NCBI GenBank assembly: GCA_016930875.1
Contig: JAFGFW010000014.1
Span: 15,338-79,337, forward strand
Direction of reading: 5' to 3'
DNA: 64,000 nucleotides
DNA from: Deltaproteobacteria bacterium
GTDB taxonomy: Bacteria; Desulfobacterota; Desulfobacteria; Desulfobacterales; C00003060
Numbering within the stretch: the first letter of the stretch is position 1; each line of letters begins with the position of its first letter. The translations under genes were made by a program, and so were the position numbers. Below the pieces are notes generated by a model. That model saw only the letters and a list, made by a program, of their open reading frames with translations. It did no database searches and was not told where the DNA came from. Of this stretch, positions 415 to 30,884 are shown piece by piece.

Positions 415-1101
415 ATGATTTACAAAATCCTATTGGCCATCTGGATGGCTGTTATCATTGTGGCTGCCTTCTTTTTCACAGAAGCAGCTACCGGCTTCCC
501 CGGACAGACGTCCCGCATCTTGTTTTTTCATGTCCCCCAGGCATGGGTGGCCACGCTCTCATTTTTGTTGTCCATGATAGCAAGCGCCATGTACCTGGCC
601 AAACGCAATGTCAGGGCAGACTTCCTGGCCCTGTCCGCCGCAGAGTTGGGATTCCTGTTCTGCATACTCGCCACGGTGACTGGCTCCATATTTGCCAAAG
701 CCACCTGGGGCTCATTTTGGAACTGGGACCCACGTGAAACGAGCATCGTCATACTACTTATGATTTACGGGGCCTATTTTGCGCTCCGTTCTGCCGTGGC
801 TGATCCGGAGAAAAGGCGTGTGTTTGCCGGTGTGTATTCAATACTTGCCTTTGTTACGGTCCCCTTTCTGGTCTTTGTTGTTCCGCGGATCACAGCCTCA
901 CTCCATCCGGAAAATACAATGAACCCCGCAAGTCCCGGCATGGATCCCAAAACCTTAACAGTGTTTCTAGGCTCGTTATTTGCATACACGGGATTGTTTG
1001 TATGGATGCTCCGATTGAAGATGAGGATACTGAAAATTGAAGAATCGCGAATTCGGGAATTACGAATTGAGCAATTAAGGAAACACGGAGAGGGGCGATG
1101 A
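415..1101 (+). CDS. ccmC: Haem exporter protein CcmC (System I cytochrome c maturation)
   Basis: 228-aa polytopic membrane ORF with the Trp-rich WWD motif WGSFWNWDPRE. It is followed by ccmD/E/F. The competing ORF 408-737 in another frame is judged spurious. Confidence 0.9.
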   Translation: MIYKILLAIWMAVIIVAAFFFTEAATGFPGQTSRILFFHVPQAWVATLSFLLSMIASAMYLAKRNVRADFLALSAAELGFLFCILATVTGSIFAKATWGSFWNWDPRETSIVILLMIYGAYFALRSAVADPEKRRVFAGVYSILAFVTVPFLVFVVPRITASLHPENTMNPASPGMDPKTLTVFLGSLFAYTGLFVWMLRLKMRILKIEESRIRELRIEQLRKHGEGR

Positions 1102-1235
1102 AAGAAGGTCTCGGTTTTGTCATGGGGGTTAATCTGATTATATGGTGTGGCATAGCCTTTTACCTCTTCATCCTGGATCGAAAGATAAAGAGACTGGAAC
1201 AGGCGCCCAGAGATAGACAAATCAATGACAAATAA
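1098..1235 (+). CDS. ccmD: CcmD-like small membrane protein
   Basis: 45-codon ORF below the track cut-off: MKEGLGFVMGVNLIIWCGIAFYLFILDRKIKRLEQAPRDRQINDK. Its ATG overlaps the ccmC stop (ATGA). It has one TM helix plus a basic tail, in the expected position between ccmC and ccmE. Confidence 0.55.
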   Translation: MKEGLGFVMGVNLIIWCGIAFYLFILDRKIKRLEQAPRDRQINDK

Positions 1236-1421
1236 GGAATCTAAACAGTTGCAACAGGATTTAGGCGATTATCAGGTACGTATGCGCAGGTAATTTCCCG
1301 TCGCGGATTGCGTTTTCTGCCTTTCTTTTGGAAAGGCGGAAACCTAAAAAAATCCCTCAAATCCTGTCGATCCTGTTTAACAAACCGGCGAAGGCGAATA
1401 AATATGAATGAGCTGTAAAAC

Positions 1422-1805
1422 ATGCCAAAGAAATCTTACATCATCGGTGGAGTTATCATCGTACTGGCCATGGCCATGGCCATGTATTCCTTTAAATCAA
1501 CCTTGACCCCCTATGTGACCGTTGGCGAAGCCAAGGCAAGCAAGCGCCCGGTGCAGGTGGCAGGTATTGCGGTCAAGGGGACTGAAAGGTATGACTTGAA
1601 GACGAACAACTTTCTTTTTACGCTCCGCGAAGATGGCGGAGCTCAGATGCTGGTCGAATATGACGGGCCAAGGCCTGGAAATTTTGATGATGCAACCAAG
1701 GTCGTGGCCATTGGCAAATACGAACCAACGAAGCAGGTCTTTACGGCCAAAGAACTCTTGGTCAAATGTCCAACGAAATACGAAGGGCGAGTTAAAGGGG
1801 AATGA
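1422..1805 (+). CDS. ccmE: Haem chaperone CcmE, Cys-type (CxxxY) variant
   Basis: 127 aa with an N-terminal TM anchor (IIGGVIIVLAMAMAMY) and an OB-fold-sized periplasmic domain. The C-terminal haem-binding site reads VKCPTKYEG (C116-x3-Y120) instead of the canonical HxxxY. Confidence 0.85.
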   Translation: MPKKSYIIGGVIIVLAMAMAMYSFKSTLTPYVTVGEAKASKRPVQVAGIAVKGTERYDLKTNNFLFTLREDGGAQMLVEYDGPRPGNFDDATKVVAIGKYEPTKQVFTAKELLVKCPTKYEGRVKGE

Positions 1806-4063
1806 GTAATTTGGGTCAAGTTACGATGTGGTTGGGACTTATTGCAATTGGCATATCATCGGTATGCTACGCGGTTGTGGTTTCCGGAAAAGACAGTGAA
1901 GTAGCCAAAAATGCAGCAAGGCTAAGTTTCGTCGCCTTTTCCGTTTTTGTGACCATCGCATCCATGCTTTTGATGCATTTCATACTCAACCATGAGTTTG
2001 TGTACAGTTATGTGGCTAGATATTCGTCCCGTGATCTTTCTTTGGAATATTTGGTCAGCTCTTTCTGGGCAGGGCAGGAGGGTAGTTTCCTCCTATGGGT
2101 GCTGCTTGGGGCCTGGTTGGGTATATTTCTTATGTTTAGGGCCAGAAACATGGAACCCCATGTCATGCTCATCTACAACCTGAACAACGTCTTCCTGATG
2201 ATTCTCTTGATCAAGCAAAGCCCATTTCATATGCTCCCCCTTCCTCCTCCTGACGGCAACGGACTCAACATGCTCTTACAGGATCCCTGGATGGTTATCC
2301 ATCCGCCCATAGTATTTCTGGGTTACGCTGCCTTTACTATACCCTTTGCCTATGCCGTGTCTGCCCTGTGGCGAAGAGAATATGATGCTTGGATCAAGCC
2401 TGCCTTACCCTGGACGGCTTTTGCCTTCGTTAGCCTGGGCGCCGGCATCATCATCGGCGGATACTGGTCCTATAAGGTGCTGGGATGGGGTGGCTATTGG
2501 GGTTGGGATCCGGTGGAAAATGCCTCTCTGTTACCGTGGCTGGCGGGCATGGCATTGATGCATGGCATGATTTTGCAGAAGACGCGAGGCAAATTGCGAA
2601 AAACAAACTTTATGTTGGCCGCCTTCTCGTTTCTTCTGGTTATCTACTGTACGTTTCTCACCAGATCCGGCGTCCTGGCTGATTTTTCCGTTCATTCTTT
2701 CGTAGATCTTGGCATCACCGGCTGGCTGGTCATCTTCATGTTCGCCTTTATCGCCATTTCCATTTTTCTTTTCGTGACCAGGGCCAAGGAGATCCCCGTA
2801 TCCAAAAAGGGGGAAAACCCGAGCTACTTCTCAAGAGAATTCGGCCTTATTGCCGCCATGATCCTCCTTTGTCTCTCTACCCTTGTAACCGGCCTGGGCA
2901 CGTCCGCGCCTCTCATAACCAGAATGCTCGAACAGGCATCAAAGGTGTCAACAGAGTTTTACGTAAATACGAATCTGCCGCTGGCGCTTTTTATGTTACT
3001 CCTTTTGAGCTTTGTCCCATTGATGGCCTGGGGTAAAAACAGCTTTTCAAAAGTCGGCGCCAAGGCAAAGTGGGCTGGAGCGGGGGCTGTAGTCGCCTTG
3101 GTAATCACACTGCTAAACGGTTATCCAGACATGGAAGCGCCGCTTCTTTCACTGGGTGTATTACTCCTTTCAATACTTGGCGGCGCAGTAACAGGCATGA
3201 ATCTTTTGCTGGCCACAAAACTCATCAGAAAAAAAATCACCATTTCAAGCGGCGCTATTGCCCATCTTGGGGTAGGCTTGATGTTTCTCGGTATTGTGGC
3301 CTCGTCTGCCTATGACAGGTCGGAAAAGCTGCTACTACCACAGGACACGGTCAAAAGCGTCCTTGGCTATGAGATTATGCTCAATGGTCCCCAATTCTCA
3401 AGAGAAGGCAAAGGGATGCGCCTCCACTTTCCTTTAGATATCAAAAGAAGGGAATCTCAGTTTACTGCCAAACCTGACATCTATTCTGAGCGAGGGCGAG
3501 GCGGCAAAATGCAACGTTTTACCCATCCCCATATCCGCAAGGGACTCATGTCCGACCTATATATTTCACCACTGGACTTTGAACCTGGTCAAGAGAAGGG
3601 TTCAGGAAATTCCCTCGATCTAAAAAGGGGAAACAAAATCGCCTTTCATGACTACGAACTTGAATTTACGGGTTTTGATGTGTCAGGCATGATGGGACAG
3701 GACGCCCGGAATATGACAGTGGGAGCAAATATTGTTGCTTCCTACAAAGGCGACGACCGCGCAACCTTGAAACCGGTCATAACCATGAGCAAGAAACATG
3801 GCCCATCTAGCCCATCCAGCCGTGTAAAACTGCCGGGACCGGATGATGCATATCTGACCCTTGAAAGAATAGACGCAGGCGCCAAGACTATAGGCCTTGT
3901 TTACGAAGGCCCCGGATCTGCCTCGGAAAAAAGCGCTGAGAAGAGCCCCCCCGCCGTCATTGCAGAGGTTAGCATCAAACCCGGCATGACCGTCCTGTGG
4001 CTTGGGACTTTCCTGATCCTTGTGGGAGGCAGCATTGCAGTTGTTCGCCGCTGGCCGAAGTAA
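1802..4063 (+). CDS. ccmF: Cytochrome c haem lyase subunit CcmF
   Basis: 753-aa polytopic membrane protein with WWD motif WGGYWGWDPVENASLLPW. The start overlaps the ccmE stop (ATGA). Confidence 0.9.
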   Translation: MSNLGQVTMWLGLIAIGISSVCYAVVVSGKDSEVAKNAARLSFVAFSVFVTIASMLLMHFILNHEFVYSYVARYSSRDLSLEYLVSSFWAGQEGSFLLWVLLGAWLGIFLMFRARNMEPHVMLIYNLNNVFLMILLIKQSPFHMLPLPPPDGNGLNMLLQDPWMVIHPPIVFLGYAAFTIPFAYAVSALWRREYDAWIKPALPWTAFAFVSLGAGIIIGGYWSYKVLGWGGYWGWDPVENASLLPWLAGMALMHGMILQKTRGKLRKTNFMLAAFSFLLVIYCTFLTRSGVLADFSVHSFVDLGITGWLVIFMFAFIAISIFLFVTRAKEIPVSKKGENPSYFSREFGLIAAMILLCLSTLVTGLGTSAPLITRMLEQASKVSTEFYVNTNLPLALFMLLLLSFVPLMAWGKNSFSKVGAKAKWAGAGAVVALVITLLNGYPDMEAPLLSLGVLLLSILGGAVTGMNLLLATKLIRKKITISSGAIAHLGVGLMFLGIVASSAYDRSEKLLLPQDTVKSVLGYEIMLNGPQFSREGKGMRLHFPLDIKRRESQFTAKPDIYSERGRGGKMQRFTHPHIRKGLMSDLYISPLDFEPGQEKGSGNSLDLKRGNKIAFHDYELEFTGFDVSGMMGQDARNMTVGANIVASYKGDDRATLKPVITMSKKHGPSSPSSRVKLPGPDDAYLTLERIDAGAKTIGLVYEGPGSASEKSAEKSPPAVIAEVSIKPGMTVLWLGTFLILVGGSIAVVRRWPK

Positions 4064-4114: not shown

Positions 4115-5259
4115 CTACTGTCCATCCTTGCTTGTATGGCAGATAAAACAGCCCGTGCCGTCAGCCCCGCCGCCACCGGCAATCATGTCATCTTTGTAAT
4201 TCCACCTGAGCATGTCATCATAAGGACTCCCGTGGGCCACGTGGCAAGAAAGACACATGACCATGTCCTCACCTTCGCCCAAATACACCATGCTGTCTGC
4301 ATCATTCCAATCAAAAGTACCACCACTTGTGGGTCGAGCTACGGGCAGCATGGGATCATAGGTGCCTGTGCCAGACGACCCATCCGCTCCAAAGGCAAAG
4401 GCGTACTCTCCAGAGTTCGGTATCCTAACATCCGAGGGGTGCCTGAGCCACCTTCCGGATCCGTCCGATTGCTCGTTTTGCATATGGAAATCACCGTGAC
4501 AACCGCAGCAGAAAGCTGTCATCGTATTGCCAAGGCCACCAAAAGCAGTAGTGCTGTCCAGGCTGGTTTCGTTACCCAAATACTCATTGTGGTTGGAAGC
4601 AGTAGCGCCATAATTCCACTTCTCATGTTCAATCCCGGCAACACCGTTGAGATTCCCCCCTTGATGCCCTTGAAGGAAGCGGTACCAACCTTCATCCGCA
4701 GTGTCCACCACGGTGTCTGAGTCATCAGCATGATGAAAACCTTTGGGGCCATCAGTATCTGACACCATGTGGCACCCAGTGCAACCCTGCCTGTCAGCCA
4801 AACCCGTATAACCATCAACGTAGGTGGCGTGAAGGTTATTGTGACAGGAGTCAGTGCCGCACCCAGTACCCCAACTTCTCCCAGGAGCACCCTCAAGCAA
4901 ACCCTCATCCGGATTATCGGAAAACACATTGTGTCCTTTGGCATCATCACCCTGGCCCACCCACCAGAAATTCCCGCCGGCCAGGGTGTTAGTACCAAAG
5001 CTCGGCAGACCTGTGTCGGACATGACGTAAGGAACGGTGTTGTTGCCGTCATTGGTCCCGGTGTGGCATCCCACGCAGGTATTTGGACGCTATACGGCCC
5101 CCCTGAGGCCACATCAGCCCCTCCCTGGCTTGTTTTGTTATGCATGGTGTGGCAGTTGTCACAACGACCTGTAACTTTAGCCCACACGGAATCGGAGGGA
5201 AGGGCCGTCAACCCCAATGCAGCAAAAACTGCTACAAGAACCCTCACGCTTTTTCTCAT
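4115..5259 (-). pseudogene. OmcS-like multihaem cytochrome c, interrupted by a 1-nt frameshift (pseudogene or assembly indel)
   Basis: The N-terminal part is in the frame of ORF 4519-5274 (MRKSVRVLVAVFAALGLTALPSDSVWA|KVTGRCDNCHTMHNKTSQGG...GGPYSVQ). It continues in the frame of ORF 4115-5074 (..TCVGCHTGTNDG...MCLSCHVAHG...CFICHTSKDGQ). The second frame is closed by TAG at 5090-5092, so the switch must occur in 5078-5089. Adding one A to the AAA run restores ...SVQNTCVGCH. The joined product would carry 6 CxxCH motifs plus one CGTDSCH. Confidence 0.75.
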
Positions 5260-5329
5260 AACAAACACGATCAACTCAATGAAATGTTATTGGAAAGCAG
5301 GGAACCAATTGGGAACCTCAACGACTATC

Positions 5330-5370
5330 AAAAAAAAGCGTGGAGCAAGCACGCGAGCTTCTCTCCACGC
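5330..5370 (-). terminator. Rho-independent terminator downstream of the 5431-6492 cytochrome gene
   Basis: On the minus strand: GCGTGGAG-(17 nt)-CTCCACGC followed by T8. Confidence 0.75.
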
Positions 5371-5430
5371 ATCGAACATATCTAAAATTCTAGCAAGGGA
5401 TTACCGCTTTAAGCTCTCGGCCGCCTTTTA

Positions 5431-6492
5431 TTATGGCTTTTCCCTTTGCTTGTCATGGCATCCAAGACAACCTGTAGTGACTGAGCCACTGCCTGCCTCC
5501 TGTGCGGCATAGTCGAATCTCAGGATGTCGTTGTACTCAGAGCCATGGGCCCTATGACACGAAAGGCATGTAACATAGACGCTCAACGCGCCACCACCAC
5601 CGGTACCTGGGTCTGCAGCATCAACCATTCCCACGGGATTAAATTTCCAATCATTTTCATCATATTCGCCAGCCGTTCCGGGAATCTCCCAGTCCGCCGG
5701 AAGCGCCTCATCCGTAGGGTGCCTTATCCACGCGCCTGCAGCATTCTTTGTATCCCCCACGTCAACGCCGTGAAAATTTCCATGGCACTTCCCGCACAAC
5801 TCACTGATAGAGGCCTCGTCCGCAGCGGTCTGGTCAGCACTATATAAGTTATGGTAATCATCACTCGAAGGAGCATCATTTAAAGCCTCTTCATAATCGT
5901 TATCACCACCAGTACCATTTCCTATAACCTCTTCACCATCAACTCCAAGAAGCCGATAACCCAACTCAGTGTTGTTCCCGTGATGTCCACCTGAAATGGC
6001 TTCCGCCTCATCAGTAGTGTCTTCGGTGCCATGGCATCCAGCTGAACCGGCACACGTTAAACCGCCTGAAAGGGCCTCATCACCCGTGTACCAATCGGAG
6101 GAAAGTTCAGTGCCATCATAACCGGCAGGTTCCTCTAGGGATCCATATGTGTGACTATTGTCGTTATGGTCTCCCCCGCCATCCGTAAAGTACCCGCCTG
6201 CAAGGTAGTTGTTGGGTGTTCCAGCCATCTTCACAAATGGGTACCCGTTGGAAGAAGGGTCACTGCCGGTTGTTGTGTGACATCCTAAACACGTATCCAC
6301 CAGCAAGGAACCTATTTCAGTATCATAAGGCCTATTTACCCAGGTAGCGTGGAGCGTACCTCCTTGACTGCTGTGCATGGTGTGACAGTCGACACACGGA
6401 CCCTGGACCTGTGCCACGGCTGGGCCAGAACACATTACAACGAAGACTACTGCCCCCAATAAGATTGTTAACCTAAACATTGTCTTTCTCAT
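5431..6492 (-). CDS. OmcS-like hexahaem c-type cytochrome (secreted)
   Basis: Start moved to ATG 6492 (MRKTMFRLTILLGAVVFVV...AVA|QVQGPC), which has a GGAGGAGG Shine-Dalgarno (SD) ribosome-binding motif just upstream. Haem motifs are CVDCH, CLGCH, CGKCH, CLSCH and CLGCH, plus atypical CAGSAGCH. The blocks CxxCHTMHSSQGG, [28 protein letters not shown] and terminal CLGCHDK parallel Geobacter OmcS as I recall it. Confidence 0.8.
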   Translation of the reverse strand: MRKTMFRLTILLGAVVFVVMCSGPAVAQVQGPCVDCHTMHSSQGGTLHATWVNRPYDTEIGSLLVDTCLGCHTTTGSDPSSNGYPFVKMAGTPNNYLAGGYFTDGGGDHNDNSHTYGSLEEPAGYDGTELSSDWYTGDEALSGGLTCAGSAGCHGTEDTTDEAEAISGGHHGNNTELGYRLLGVDGEEVIGNGTGGDNDYEEALNDAPSSDDYHNLYSADQTAADEASISELCGKCHGNFHGVDVGDTKNAAGAWIRHPTDEALPADWEIPGTAGEYDENDWKFNPVGMVDAADPGTGGGGALSVYVTCLSCHRAHGSEYNDILRFDYAAQEAGSGSVTTGCLGCHDKQREKP

Positions 6493-6589
6493 TCCTCGCA
6501 CCTCCTCCTTTCCATTTCCTGTAAACTCCTGAATCGTTAAGCTGTCCCAAAACTGTTTCTTACATAACGAGATAACATCATGTATCATC

Positions 6590-6604
6590 GCAGCATCCGT
6601 GCCA
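6590..6604 (-). promoter_or_regulatory. Candidate sigma-54 (-24/-12) promoter for the 5431-6492 cytochrome gene
   Basis: The minus strand reads TGGCAC-GGATG-CTGC with correct GG-N10-GC spacing, about 100 nt upstream of the ATG at 6492. Confidence 0.5.
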
Positions 6605-6764
6605 ACGAAGTCACAATCGGTAAATATTGCGATATTGCAATTCAATCAATAAATTACAAGCCCTTAACAACGCGGACACAATGTGACATTGAACAAAAAG
6701 TGGAAAGAAAGTGCCACTTTATGGGAACCCTTTTTCACTCATTGTGTGAAAAAAGTTCCTCATC

Positions 6765-6796
6765 AAAAAAGCCGGACCACGTTCACGCAGTCCGGC
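6765..6796 (-). terminator. Rho-independent terminator downstream of the dodecahaem gene pair
   Basis: On the minus strand: AGCCGGAC-(12 nt)-GTCCGGCT followed by T6. Confidence 0.8.
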
Positions 6797-6922
6797 TGTC
6801 CTTATCCTCAAGCCCCTGACCCTCCGTCTCCCGATCACTCGGGATTTGGCTTTGCACAAACGTCAGACTCCCGAGCCGTAACTTCAGGCCACTCGGCTCA
6901 CTTTCCTTGCACGTGCACCTTG

Positions 6923-7888
6923 TCACATCAACAGATCATGGGCGATGCCGTGGCAATCCCGGCAGTTTGTAGCCTTCATGGCCTTGGGATGAGGCTCCCC
7001 GTGGCACATGCCGCAAGCCGGAATCTCTGCGTGACTCCGATGGCAGTCAGCGCACGTGACAGCCGTATGCTTGGTCACCTTCTTTTGCAGCAAGTCGTTT
7101 ACGTCTTCATGGCACCCTGCGCAAATGGCCGACTCTGTGGTCTTGTCATAGGCTATCTGTGTTGGTTTGTGTACAGGATGGCACGTCATGCAGTCCTTTG
7201 TGGCCAACTCCACCGCAGGGCTGTGGGATTCATGGCAGACGCTGCACTCAGGGATGAACCCGTGTTTGTCGGCATGGCAGTCAGCGCAGGCCACATCGCT
7301 TGTATGCTTGCTAGGGAAGTTCTCTATTTCACCGCCCTCTTTTGTGTGGCAAAGGGCGCAGGATGCCTCGACCTCGGCCATAGGAATGACTAGCGGCTTA
7401 TGGGGATCAATATGGCAAGTCAGACAAGGGGTCAATACCTTTTGATCTCCGTGGAACGCCCCGCCGCTGGCGCTCTTGTGGCACCAGGCGCAGTCAGGCA
7501 TGATCTGGTCATAGTTTTGCTTGCGGGGATTGTAGATATGGTACTCTCTGTGGCAGCGCACGCAGTCAATCTGGTGCCTGGCTCCTTCTTTCTTGATGGT
7601 CTGAAAAATCGAGAAATGACACTGACCGCACTCCACCGTGGTAAGGGGCTTTACCTCCATCTGATAAGGCGACATCTGGGCTTTGGAGGCAGCCTCTCTT
7701 GCCTCTGCTGACGGCGGCCCCACCATGTCTTGGAGGGCCACGGTGGCCGTCCCAAAACGTATCCCCTCATTGCTTTCAAAAGCGCCAATCAAGACGATGA
7801 TCAAAATGATCAACACGATACCGATAAAACCTGCAATCCATTTTGAACTCTTCATAATTGTACCCGTCCTAGCCATTCTCTCGATCAA
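6923..7888 (-). CDS. Membrane-tethered dodecahaem c-type cytochrome (3 x tetrahaem modules)
   Basis: 321 aa. The start is uncertain (TTG at 7888, or ATG at 7855 giving MKSSKW...). It has a single N-terminal hydrophobic helix, WIAGFIGIVLIILIIVLIGAF. There are 12 CxxCH motifs: CGQCH, CVRCH, CAWCH, CLTCH, CALCH, CADCH, CSVCH, CMTCH, CAGCH, CADCH, CGMCH, CRDCH. It ends in CHGIAHDLLM. Confidence 0.85.
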   Translation of the reverse strand: MIERMARTGTIMKSSKWIAGFIGIVLIILIIVLIGAFESNEGIRFGTATVALQDMVGPPSAEAREAASKAQMSPYQMEVKPLTTVECGQCHFSIFQTIKKEGARHQIDCVRCHREYHIYNPRKQNYDQIMPDCAWCHKSASGGAFHGDQKVLTPCLTCHIDPHKPLVIPMAEVEASCALCHTKEGGEIENFPSKHTSDVACADCHADKHGFIPECSVCHESHSPAVELATKDCMTCHPVHKPTQIAYDKTTESAICAGCHEDVNDLLQKKVTKHTAVTCADCHRSHAEIPACGMCHGEPHPKAMKATNCRDCHGIAHDLLM

Positions 7889-7922
7889 TTGTTACCGGCA
7901 GAACCCCCGGATCAACTATTAT

Positions 7923-8804
7923 CTAGCCTTTTAGATCATGTGCTATGCCATGGCACTGGCCGCACTCGGGAAATTTGTCCAGTATCCCCTTTGGATGCGG
8001 GTTTGGATGACACGCATAGCATGGTGGCACGGTCTTGTGTTTGTTCTTGTGGCAAAAGACACAGGAAAGATCATGGTGCTTGGTCGTATTCTTTGCCAGC
8101 AGGTCCATTGCCTCCTCATGACAGGCCCCGCAATAAGGAGATGGGGTGTCCTGGGCATAGGTAATTACCAGAGGCATATGAACAGGATGGCAAGACACGC
8201 AGGCCTTAAAATCCATATCCTCGGTGTGTTTTTCGTGGCACTGCGTACAGTCCGGAATCTGCCGGTGTGCTGCGTGGCACTCGTTACAGGCCAGATCCGT
8301 GTGGGCGCTCGGGTGCTGTTCGACCTCGTCACCCTGCTGCTGGTGACATGTAAGACAAGGTCCGGTGATCTCGCCTTCCAACTTCAAATCAAGGGGAGCG
8401 TGGGTGTCAGTGTGACAACTTGCACACCCCTCCAACTCATAATGGGCCTCCCCGCTGTGGCAGATACTGCACTCCGGTATGGCGCCTGCACCCTCGGGTG
8501 GATGCTCCTGATGACAGTCCAGACAGCCAACCTCGGTCCTGTGTTTCTCTCCGCGGGTTGCTATGGTCTGAGGCTGCTGGGGGTGGCATACTACACAGTG
8601 CGCATTGGTCAGAGTCGGGACATCAGGCTCTGCCTGAACCTGCTGGGGTGCTGCGGTCGTCGGCCGAACGCGAGTGGTTTGTTGACAAGCAAAGACGCAA
8701 ATCAAAGCGATTACGCCAAGAACGCCAACGACAACCCCAATTGATCTTGTTGCCGTCAGGCTACTGAAAAATGAAACGCCTCTTTTTCTCTTCAGTACAC
8801 CCAT
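7923..8804 (-). CDS. Membrane/lipid-anchored dodecahaem c-type cytochrome, paralogue of 6923-7888
   Basis: 293 aa with GGAGGAG SD upstream. A basic N-terminus is followed by a hydrophobic stretch ending in a lipobox-like VFAC. There are 12 CxxCH motifs: CVVCH, CLDCH, CSICH, CASCH, CLTCH, CNECH, CTQCH, CVSCH, CGACH, CVFCH, CYACH, CGQCH. It ends in CHGIAHDLKG. Confidence 0.85.
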   Translation of the reverse strand: MGVLKRKRGVSFFSSLTATRSIGVVVGVLGVIALICVFACQQTTRVRPTTAAPQQVQAEPDVPTLTNAHCVVCHPQQPQTIATRGEKHRTEVGCLDCHQEHPPEGAGAIPECSICHSGEAHYELEGCASCHTDTHAPLDLKLEGEITGPCLTCHQQQGDEVEQHPSAHTDLACNECHAAHRQIPDCTQCHEKHTEDMDFKACVSCHPVHMPLVITYAQDTPSPYCGACHEEAMDLLAKNTTKHHDLSCVFCHKNKHKTVPPCYACHPNPHPKGILDKFPECGQCHGIAHDLKG

Positions 8805-9135
8805 TGTGTCTCTCCTCCAGGTGAAAGGCTTGTTCCCAAGGCCATCTTTGCCGCTCCAAGGTCAAGGGAAAATGTCAAAAAATATTTTTTGTCCAGAATA
8901 CCCATCATCGAGTACAAACTCGCGTTCTCGCTATCACTAGAATAGAGTGATGTCAAGCACTTTTTGACAATTTCGCAAGCTGTTACCCGCCTCTTGGGGG
9001 ATTCAGATAAGGGGGCTTGCAAATGCCATTGACGGAAGAGTAAACGAAATAAATGTGGCGGGTTGCGGGGTGTCCGGTTCGCTAGGTCGAAACGCTTCGC
9101 TGGGTGACGCCTAGCCATTTCCGGGAAGTGGCTCA

Positions 9136-10227
9136 CTAATCTTTCCAGGTATGGCAAACCGCACAGCCGTTATTGCCAGGAGGCCAGTTCTTGTAGTCCC
9201 AGCGCATGAGCTTAAAATAGTCAGTCGCGTGGGCGCCATGGCAAGAAAGGCACATCACAATGTCATCATCGCTCCCTGGGGGATCAACACTATCTGAAGG
9301 GGTTTGTTGAGGGATGGTCACCCTCGCGACAGGCGCCACTAGGCTATAGTTGACGTAGCCTACATATTCCCCGGTACCAGGAAGGGACGTATCTGTCGGG
9401 TGCCTGATCCATGGGGTTCCCCCACTTGTTTCATCCAGACCTGAACCATGGTAATATCCGTGACATTCGGCACAAAACCCGCTGATGGTGTTTCCAGCAG
9501 GGCTTGTAGCGCTGCTGGCGCCCATGCTTGTAGCCCCCTTATATTCGTTATGGTCGCTAGCCCCCGTTGTGCTTTGCCAAGCATCATCTTCACCACCTTT
9601 TACTCGGTATAGAAATCTATAACTATTTCCCACGAATGTGCCCTGTGCGTTCTCATTGATGTGGTTAAACTTCAAGGCAAGATCATGCGTGTGATGAGCC
9701 CCTTTCATGGCTTCATATTCACCATTTTTTATCCTGTCCCCATGGCAGCCGTATTTCCCGGCGCACGTTAGGTTACTTCCTGTAATTCCAGTTTGATGCT
9801 GGTCGCCCGGGGGTGAATTAAGGACATCATCAGATTTGCCAAGGGGGACCACATTGTGGCCCTTGGCATCTGAAGCGCCACTACCCTTATAGCCGGTAAT
9901 ATAGGCAAAATTACCTGCTGCCAGATCCCCGTCCGAGTCGTTATGAAAAACCTGGGGAATTTGAGATAAACCAATCGTAACGATACGCCCTCCGGTGATC
10001 TGCGCGTGGCACCCAAAGCAGGTCCCCCGCAAAAGATAAGTCTTTGGACCTGAGCCTGCGTCCTCGGGGTTTTGGCTCGTATCTCCGTAAGTTGCCATGG
10101 GCAATCCACCCTGACTGTTATGCATGGTATGACAATTGACGCACGGCCCGCTCACCTCGGCCTGAAGCGTACGCAACATAACTACGGTCAAAAAGATTAA
10201 CGCTATGCTTGCGACCGATTTCTTCAT
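9136..10227 (-). CDS. OmcS-like hexahaem c-type cytochrome (secreted)
   Basis: 363 aa with signal peptide [23 protein letters not shown]|EV. Haem motifs are CVNCH, CFGCH, CAECH, CLSCH and CAVCH, plus atypical CAGKYGCH. The blocks [13 protein letters not shown], [21 protein letters not shown] and terminal CAVCHTWKD parallel my recollection of OmcS (CEGCHTMHNSLGG, KGHNI, NLRHP, CLSCHRAH, CNKCHAKD). Confidence 0.8.
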
Positions 10228-30507: not shown

Positions 30508-30819
30508 TTAAAATGTCAAGACCTTGTTGGCATCCATAGCCAACTCGTACAGATCATCCATCCAGCCAATGGGACAGGTGCTTGATCCCTCCAGACCGTG
30601 GGATTTCATGCAAACCCCTCAGACGTAGAAATCTCCCTCAAACTGGTTGACTTGCTCCATAACATTGAATTCTTCGGTTCCGCACTTTTCAAAAAGGACA
30701 CCTTTGCCCAGCATAAATACGCTGACTTCATCACCCTTTTTCACCCCCACGTTGGCTAACCTCATGGCATTGTACATGGTTTCGCCATCATCCGTGCTAA
30801 TGATTAACAGGATTTTCAT
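30508..30819 (-). CDS. DsrE/DsrF-like family protein, predicted selenoprotein (UGA at 30619-30621 read as Sec)
   Basis: The track ORF (66 aa) stops at TGA, but the same frame continues for 36 codons: ...GDFYV-U-GVCMKSHGLEGSSTCPIGWMDDLYELAMDANKVLTF*. In this small DsrE-like subfamily a CGxC motif sits here, so U replaces the first Cys. A hairpin AUCCC-ACGGUCUGGA-GGGAU lies 14 nt after the UGA. A GGAGG SD motif lies upstream of the ATG. Confidence 0.7.
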
Positions 30820-30884
30820 GCCATAACCTCCAATTCCGGCCTCCTGTGGACCAATCGTTTTTCATTCCCACGCAGGACAATGCA

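Follow-up and report, generated by a model that had tools for sequence, protein, structure and literature searches.

An in-frame UGA in a DsrE-like gene of a deltaproteobacterium: a predicted UxxC selenoprotein with a conserved candidate SECIS hairpin

Introduction

On the minus strand of the stretch of deltaproteobacterial DNA analyzed here (64,000 nucleotides, hereafter the window), an open reading frame runs from an ATG at positions 30819-30817 to a TGA at 30621-30619, and is predicted to encode a product of 66 amino acids. Past this TGA the same frame remains open for 36 more codons, up to a TAA at 30510-30508, giving 103 codons in total. The question that this locus raises is whether the TGA ends a short protein, or whether it is read as selenocysteine (Sec) within a longer one. 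An earlier note on this DNA, made from the sequence alone, had proposed the latter: a DsrE-like protein with Sec at the first position of a UxxC motif, and a hairpin resembling the SECIS element of Escherichia coli fdhF shortly downstream of the UGA.

That DsrE-like selenoproteins had already been reported in surveys, as the note also stated, is confirmed by the literature. DsrE-like UxxC proteins (PF02635) with a predicted SECIS were found in the Sargasso Sea data (Zhang, Fomenko and Gladyshev, 2005; PMC1088965), a DsrE-like selenoprotein was described in Desulfovibrio vulgaris (PMC1794560), others in the delta-symbionts of Olavius (PMC1976440), and a 2026 AEM review includes DsrE-like proteins among the families "predicted with high confidence" (PMC13188914). 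Deltaproteobacteria ranked first among the bacterial groups of the 2006 survey, both in the number of selenoprotein families and in that of selenoproteins (PMC1794560).

Results

The reading frame interrupted by TGA

The complete candidate coding sequence of this DsrE/YchN-like selenoprotein (30508..30819, minus strand) comprises 103 codons, from M1 to F103 with U67, plus the TAA. The coordinates of the 66-amino acid ORF, of the TGA and of the TAA, as well as the 36-codon extension and the 103-amino acid product given in the earlier note, were all reproduced, the joined translation being identical. A putative Shine-Dalgarno sequence, GGAGG (30827..30831, minus strand), is located 7 nt before the ATG; from its sequence, it would serve in translation of the gene. 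The in-frame UGA is codon 67 (30619..30621, minus strand) and, if read as Sec, occupies position 1 of a U-G-V-C motif. The motif ends with Cys70 (UGC, 30610..30612, minus strand), the putative resolving or partner Cys of UxxC. Farther downstream, the codon of Cys82 (30574..30576, minus strand), which forms part of a conserved C-P dipeptide, encodes Cys in 81 of the 81 close homologues.

TGA is the true stop of 13 of the 24 long recognizable genes of the window and the commonest stop there. As it terminates these genes, the standard genetic code applies. A screen of the 64-kb window for other long genes interrupted by TGA did not yield any convincing case.

Conservation of the frame beyond the TGA

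The comparative set of 80 loci came from a scan in which each species was represented by a single genome. Most of the loci bear names of Desulfobacterota-type taxa, namely Desulfobacterales, Desulfovibrionales, Syntrophobacteraceae, Desulfarculia, Desulfatiglandales and Desulfuromonadales, and the set includes the isolate Desulfoferrobacter suflitae DRH4 (L069) and an 81%-identical copy in a Desulfovibrionaceae MAG (L062). Across the named orders, identity is at least 78% and pN/pS is about 0.14. Codon 67 is TGA in all 80 loci, and in every one of them the downstream 36 codons encode GVCMKSHGLEGSSxCPIxWMDDLYEL...KVLTF, with the stop at the identical position. Among the observations that, according to the earlier note, would speak against its reading were homologues ending at the TGA and dissimilar downstream codons. 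What is found is the opposite, both frame and peptide being conserved in 80/80 loci.

Codons 1-66 show a pairwise pN/pS of 0.145 and codons 80-103 one of 0.137, which indicates that both halves are under equal purifying selection at the protein level. In the two alternative frames, the downstream stretch is interrupted by stops in 81/81 and 78/81 sequences, respectively. Selection on the protein is also apparent immediately after the TGA, where codons 68-71 show a pS of 0.66 and a pN of 0.007. The amino acids encoded by codons 68-70 (G-V-C) are 100% conserved and their third positions vary freely; Cys70, present in all 81 close homologues, shows synonymous C/U variation in its codon. Codon 71 is CTG or GCG in three of the 81 sequences. 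The stretches before and after the TGA form a single reading frame.

Cysteine opposite the UGA codon

When 1.84 billion representatives were searched exhaustively without a profile, 411 clusters were obtained, and the set of distant homologues comprised 70 full-length relatives with 31-53% identity. Opposite the UGA, in column 67, Cys is present in 64 of these, Ser in five and Gly in one. At position 70, Cys is present in 66/70, at position 82 in 52/70, and Pro83 is found in 44/70. The consensus of the distant family, ACGTCL..R...CP.STM.DLY...SDKV.TF, agrees with the C-terminal pattern recognized in the earlier note (CGxC...CP...M.DL..L....DKV..F). The note had placed the UGA exactly at the first Cys of a redox CxxC and had proposed an alignment with Cys-containing homologues as a check; the counts at columns 67 and 70 bear this placement out, and a form of the gene with TGT at the codon exists.

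One locus (L004) contains, besides the Sec form, a 37%-identical Cys paralogue. The TGT form (P0009), present in two assemblies, shares 76% identity with the window protein. It retains the hairpin intact, with an RNA sequence identical to that of the window, which suggests, as far as the sequences can tell, a recent replacement of Sec by Cys. As the hairpin is still intact, P0009 is no independent control for hairpin decay.

The candidate SECIS element

The predicted upper stem-loop of the SECIS, AUCCC-A-C-GGUCUG-G-A-GGGAU (30585..30604, minus strand), lies 14 nt after the UGA. Numbering the U of UGA as +1, its pairs are A18-U37, U19-A36, C20-G35, C21-G34, C22-G33 and C24-G31, with an A23/A32 mismatch in the stem and an apical loop, G25-G-U-C-U-G30, at 30592-30597. 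The element may extend further (30579..30612, minus strand) by a lower stem consisting of U10-A43, G11-C42, C12-G41, U14-A39 and G15-C38. The 34-nt extended element folds with this lower stem at -9.6 kcal/mol, and 89% of its cells are paired, compared to 24-49% when it is slid. Variation in the lower stem is limited to wobble-compatible synonymous changes and is not above shuffles; we tentatively consider the lower stem as part of the SECIS.

According to the bacterial SECIS model (PMC13188914), the loop has 3-9 nt with a G in its initial two nucleotides, the upper stem 4-16 bp, the UGA-to-loop distance is 16-37 nt and the MFE -7.5 kcal/mol or lower. Here, a loop of 6 nt starting with GGU, a stem of 6 bp plus one mismatch and a spacing of 21 nt are found; with an MFE of -6.4 kcal/mol, the 24-nt core alone stays above the energy limit of the model, which is reached only with the tentative lower stem. 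The location, sequence and 14-nt spacing of the hairpin in the earlier note were right, and the hairpin fits the published model.

Codons 72-79 show hardly any synonymous variation across the 81 sequences: the hairpin codons are UCC in 78/78 sequences where residue 73 is Ser, GGU in 81/81 and GGA in 79/81, whereas the four-fold sites flanking the hairpin use all four bases. Normalized synonymous entropy is 0.12 in the hairpin versus 0.84 elsewhere (Mann-Whitney p = 2.8e-6), and pS is ninefold lower in the hairpin than in its flanks (0.09 versus 0.81). When the whole gene is scanned, the 8-codon window of lowest synonymous variability starts at codon 71-72. The upper helix has 87.6% of its cells paired, compared to 27-55% when slid. 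The hairpin is constrained at the RNA level, and we consider this comparative test decisive for it. As the hairpin hardly varies, covariation is minimal: there is a single compensatory change (U19-A36 to G-C, in L015), which 41/500 shuffles reach. In 12 of the 81 sequences A32 is replaced by U, the mismatch becoming a pair with an energy of -11.6 kcal/mol.

Folding energy compared with shuffles was unremarkable, with z = 0.03 for 71 nt and z = -0.64 for 24 nt. As the validated SECIS of E. coli fdhF is equally unremarkable (z = -0.94), the energy test is uninformative here. A permissive Rfam scan did not match any SECIS family, a result which is uninformative for a hairpin of 20 nt. In longer contexts, the MFE structure is a competing hairpin right after the UGA, GGGGUUU/AAAUCCC. 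This hairpin was rejected, as homologues freely disrupt two of its pairs and as it would fall inside the ribosome footprint at the UGA.

The likeness to the fdhF loop pointed out in the earlier note holds, the in-frame hexamer GGU CUG (Gly-Leu) being identical in E. coli fdhF. The fdhF segment used for this comparison shows at least 99% identity in 5,412 E. coli records, in features annotated fdhF, one of the rows listed being annotated "selenocysteine-containing". Both elements are stem-loops located soon after the UGA with an apical loop starting with GGU, and the distance from UGA to loop, 18 nt in fdhF versus 21 nt here, is inside the range of 16-37 nt in both. They differ in the loop, which in fdhF is GGUC with an A-U closing pair and a bulged U below, whereas the one described here is GGUCUG with a C-G closing pair and an A/A mismatch below. 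Beyond the GGU-CUG hexamer, the two elements do not share further sequence similarity.

Family and fold of the 103-residue product

When U is replaced by C, the 103-amino acid product matches Pfam PF02635 with 36.0 bits (cutoff 22.7), its residues 1-103 covering positions 1-116 of the 116 of the profile. In contrast, the 66-amino acid stub scores 17.7 bits, under the cutoff, and stops short of the CxxC...CP half and of the final helix and strand of the fold. An AlphaFold model of the Cys form P0009, obtained from a 78-sequence alignment, has a pLDDT of 95.3 and a pTM of 0.88. Its top Foldseek matches are all DsrE-family structures: 1JX7 (YchN, TMq 0.83), 3MC3 (0.86), 3PNX (0.81), 2QS7, 2FB6 (TMq 0.73) and TusBCD (2D1P). 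The fold is that of the DsrE/YchN family, and the DsrE-like identity put forward in the note is upheld by both Pfam and the model. A first AlphaFold model, built from 13 sequences, had a pLDDT of 72, gave meaningless Foldseek matches and was discarded.

Sequence searches of the PDB with the single protein or with a narrow profile returned nothing, whereas a deep family profile reached DsrE-family structures, YchN among them (E = 2e-8), with CGTC aligned on CKTC. In the model, residue 67 ends the strand formed by residues 63-67 and caps helix 68-73. A weak alignment with DsrE (E = 0.65) places column 67 on Cys78; in a weak alignment with TusD (E = 0.02), the position is off by one.

YchN (1JX7), 3MC3, 3PNX and 2FB6 have the fold in common with the window protein, and a size of about 105-120 amino acids. 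YchN, a hexamer whose PDB entry is a "hypothetical protein", differs in having Cys instead of Sec and no conserved C-P dipeptide, and identity is only about 21%. DsrE and TusD belong to the same superfamily, and in them the reactive residue is likewise located at the strand-to-helix junction; Cys78 of DsrE and Cys78 of TusD are the persulfide sites of those sulfur relays (PMC3397948). However, DsrEFH and TusBCD are heterohexamers of adjacently encoded paralogous subunits that pass sulfur to DsrC/TusE, and they have a single active Cys and no CxxC, whereas the window protein has UxxC; similarity to them is weak (E = 0.02-0.65). According to the same paper (PMC3397948), DsrEFH is absent from sulfate reducers. 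No DsrEFH/TusBCD paralogue or partner adjoins the gene in the window, nor does any recur across the 80 loci. As no partner subunits are encoded nearby, a DsrEFH/TusBCD subunit was ruled out. The same applies to YedF (TIGR03527), a two-domain protein of selenium metabolism that combines a TusA and a DsrE-like domain, the latter with a C/U-G-x-C motif as in the window protein (PMC5322559): the product considered here is a single DsrE domain of 103 amino acids, with no TusA domain and no TIGR03527/NCBIfam match.

Annotation of the gene in databases

A search of 5.8 billion proteins retrieved 1,983 relatives. Among the matches listed, most are 66 amino acids long, with the stop at the equivalent place. 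The NCBI entry that is 100% identical (P0019, locus tag JW883_01275), from a Deltaproteobacteria MAG, is a "hypothetical protein" of 66 amino acids. Matches of 103 amino acids, which appear as full-length, mostly have Trp at residue 67 (P0001-P0017). These Trp67 entries are caller artefacts, resulting from the translation of UGA with code 4 on short metagenomic contigs. A real Cys at residue 67 is found in two entries among the 103-amino acid matches. Some callers give the 66-amino acid product and a separate 33-amino acid ORF (L082, 1425-1526; L084, 262-363). The earlier note had anticipated that automated callers would truncate the gene, and this is the case: the 66-amino acid stub is present in NCBI and JGI, and some callers split the gene into 66 and 33 amino acids.

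Genomic context

In the window, the gene has an amidohydrolase-family gene on one side and a small secreted-protein gene on the other; housekeeping genes (recJ, miaB, clpB, htpX and hypBFCD) are present in the wider window. None of selA, selB, selC and selD was found in the 64-kb window, and no tRNA-Sec was detected when the window and 39 loci were scanned for tRNAs. That the organism has Sec machinery, as the note had implied, we infer from the presence of this gene and from the taxon.

Neighborhood analysis did not identify any conserved operon partner across the 80 loci. As the gene neighborhood is not conserved, the function of the protein receives no support from context. The only recurrent neighbor, absent from the window, is an ArsR-family regulator, which occurs within about 2 kb in 20/80 loci, mostly within 1 kb upstream of the gene. 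ArsP-type permeases, TrxB-like reductases and hybrid-cluster proteins are scattered among the neighbors in the 80 loci. In one locus (L051), yedF (TIGR03527), selD (TIGR00476) and a selenium-associated LysR regulator (NF040786) flank the gene, and in another (L011) selD is located 2 kb upstream of the gene. Both selD genes have a TGA at the position of Cys17 of E. coli. The presence of selD in these two loci indicates that selenophosphate synthetase is encoded by at least some of the carriers. Association with selD, found in only two of the 80 loci where chance would give about 0.2 if genomes measure about 4 Mb, hints at a link of the gene with selenium handling.

Discussion

The locus very probably encodes one protein of 103 residues with the DsrE/YchN fold, in which Sec67 is inserted by means of a SECIS element and which probably has a chalcogen-relay or thiol-redox role. 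Codon 67, UGA, almost certainly encodes Sec. The reading of the gene as a predicted DsrE-like UxxC selenoprotein, proposed in the earlier note, is supported by the family to which the product belongs, by the Cys correspondence and by the SECIS evidence. When compared with the published DsrE-like family, the gene is alike in belonging to PF02635, in having UxxC with Sec first and a SECIS directly downstream, and in its occurrence in Deltaproteobacteria/Desulfobacterota; members of that family (e.g., WP_014524487.1), compared by their description, show no difference of substance. The predicted product has every feature by which this selenoprotein family is recognized in sequences. Selenoproteins of this kind are already known and are to be expected in this lineage; here, the gene is mis-annotated. 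New in the present analysis are the breadth of the conservation, with TGA in 80/80 species-level genomes, and the quantification of the SECIS constraint.

A genuine stop at the TGA would leave a 66-residue fragment or a decaying pseudogene, followed by a frame that is open by chance. Databases do hold a 66-amino acid product (P0019 and hundreds more), this part alone matches DsrE weakly with its 17.7 bits, and TGA is a normal stop in the window. However, chance would hardly keep the downstream frame open to an identical stop in 80/80 loci with the other two frames closed, nor give it a pN/pS (0.137) equal to that upstream, and the stub is below the Pfam cutoff, devoid of the CxxC...CP half and of the last helix and strand; we regard a genuine stop as exceedingly improbable. 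It is scarcely conceivable that the locus makes two products, the 66-amino acid one and a 33-amino acid one restarting at Met71 with GAGGGG, which overlaps the UGA, as ribosome-binding site. Codons 68-70, ahead of Met71, are translated in frame (pS 0.66, pN 0.007), codon 71 is CTG/GCG in 3/81 sequences, and the distant homologues are single polypeptides with Cys67; against this stand the annotation of a 33-amino acid ORF right after the 66-amino acid one in L082 and L084, and the fact that GAGGGG is purine-rich and located 6 nt before AUG71. As codons 68-71 are constrained and three sequences lack an ATG at codon 71, a separate 33-amino acid ORF is excluded.

If the UGA is read through, the residue inserted could be Trp, Cys or Gly instead of Sec, either by a reassigned code or by near-cognate suppression. 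The many entries with W at the codon (P0001-P0017) and the absence of Sec machinery from the window would agree with this, but as TGA ends 13/24 long genes of the window, codes 4 and 25 do not apply. The codon replaces the near-invariant Cys of CxxC, which is the classic signature of Sec, and is followed at the right distance by a hairpin with the characteristics of a SECIS under strong constraint at the RNA level. Considering also that relatives with the gene encode a Sec-containing SelD, and that Deltaproteobacteria are the richest in selenoproteins among the bacterial groups surveyed (PMC1794560), insertion of a standard amino acid appears very unlikely. Most unlikely, too, is a hairpin that serves mRNA stability, ribosome pausing or protein binding, with read-through being independent of it. 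The single compensatory change, the retention of the hairpin in the Cys form and the lack of an Rfam SECIS match could be read in this way; yet position, loop sequence and loop size fit the SECIS model, with the fdhF hexamer in frame, and the constraint does not extend beyond the 8-9 hairpin codons. The Cys form, 76% identical and with identical hairpin RNA, is consistent with a recent change from Sec to Cys.

With UGA67 read as Sec, a ribosome arriving at this codon would meet the stem-loop that begins 14 nt downstream and presents its GGU-containing loop about 21 nt from the UGA. The hairpin would act as a bacterial SECIS and recruit SelB-GTP-Sec-tRNA(Sec), Sec would be inserted at position 67, and translation would go on to the TAA. 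In the folded protein, Sec67 would be located at the strand end that caps the next helix, the position of the conserved Cys of YchN-like relatives and probably also that of the persulfide-carrying Cys78 of DsrE/TusD. Together with Cys70, and perhaps with Cys82, it would most likely form a redox-active selenenylsulfide or carry sulfane sulfur or selenium. As Cys78 of DsrE and Cys78 of TusD carry persulfide, a chalcogen-relay or thiol-redox role for U67-x-x-C70 can reasonably be proposed. The single reading frame, the correspondence of Sec and Cys, the constraint on the hairpin RNA and the fold are shown by the data; SelB binding, actual incorporation of selenium, and the chemistry and cellular role of the protein are predicted.

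A more specific role, in which the stand-alone Sec-containing DsrE-like protein is a dedicated carrier of selenium (as perselenide) or of sulfur that acts together with SelD and YedF, is at present unlikely. If it were true, the protein would belong to a pathway supplying selenophosphate synthetase with reduced selenium or detoxifying it, and the frequent ArsR-type neighbor would reflect control by metalloid or persulfide stress.

The main value of these results concerns annotation, as hundreds of NCBI/JGI/ENA entries present as a 66-amino acid "hypothetical protein", or with Trp67, what is predicted to be a 103-amino acid selenoprotein. A corrected gene model, a well-documented SECIS and a weak SelD/YedF lead are the useful outputs. 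The hairpin also provides a clean example of an RNA element within a coding region, with synonymous sites frozen over 8-9 codons in at least six named Desulfobacterota orders/classes, and the gene may be used as a convenient marker of the decoding of UGA as Sec in the organism. As the protein occurs widely among sulfate reducers and is highly conserved in them, its biochemical study would fill a real, modest gap.

Nucleotide context of the UGA codon and a natural Cys form

The codons flanking the UGA were compared among 81 sequences, that is, the gene in the window (codon 66 and UGA, 30619-30624) and its homologues at 80 loci (L001-L080), one genome per species. Among the 80 sequences that encode Val at position 66, directly 5′ of the UGA, 76 use GUC, and codon 68, directly 3′, is GGG in 64/81. 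Hence, a C-UGA-G context is strongly preferred, beyond what the amino acids require.

A natural variant with Cys (TGT) in place of UGA, P0009, is encoded in two assemblies (L085, 870-1181; L086, 140-451). The gene is flanked by trpC-like (IGPS) and trpF-like (PRAI) genes, and its SECIS-like hairpin is still intact. P0009 looks like a recent conversion from Sec to Cys in which the SECIS has been left as a fossil.

Genomic neighborhood

The sole recurring neighbor of the DsrE-like gene across the 80 loci is an ArsR-family HTH regulator (PF01022), found within about 2 kb in 20 of them and mostly located at most 1 kb upstream (for example, L043, 5487-5849, and L004, 4860-5165). No such regulator is encoded in the window. 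Some of these loci also carry a permease of the ArsP type or a TrxB-like reductase alongside the regulator; one, L043, carries an ORF that is thioredoxin-like as judged by eye.

Selenium-metabolism genes lie beside the selenoprotein gene at only 2/80 loci. At L051 (4071-9561) it is placed inside a cluster comprising yedF (TIGR03527), selD with TGA at the Cys17 position (TIGR00476) and LysR_Sec_metab (NF040786). At L011 (3017-6309), an MFS_MOT1 transporter gene separates the selenoprotein gene from a Sec-type selD that lies 2 kb upstream of it.

An 81%-identical copy of the gene is present at L040, a 1,687-nt contig (CAZLGC010000087.1) binned as 'Candidatus Saccharibacteria' and probably mis-binned. 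Other homologues of the gene are mostly Desulfobacterota by name.

Elsewhere in the window, a block of multihaem c-type cytochromes (4115-10227) adjoins ccmC/E/F-like ORFs (415-4063), recognized by their N-terminal sequences only. A c-di-GMP-I (GEMM-I) riboswitch match (6783-6860, minus strand) scores 35.2 bits and barely reaches the Rfam gathering threshold of 35 bits. It is followed, after about 140 nt, by a multihaem cytochrome gene (5431-6645, minus strand; Paired_CXXCH_1, MtrC/MtrF-like). Riboswitches of the GEMM-I class control extracellular-electron-transfer cytochromes in Geobacter, and some sense cGAMP.

Mistranslated database entries

In public ENA/JGI protein predictions from short contigs (among P0001-P0017), the UGA was rendered as Trp by translation with code 4, which yields seemingly full-length proteins carrying W67. 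Such entries would mislead Sec/Cys comparisons that are based on alignment.
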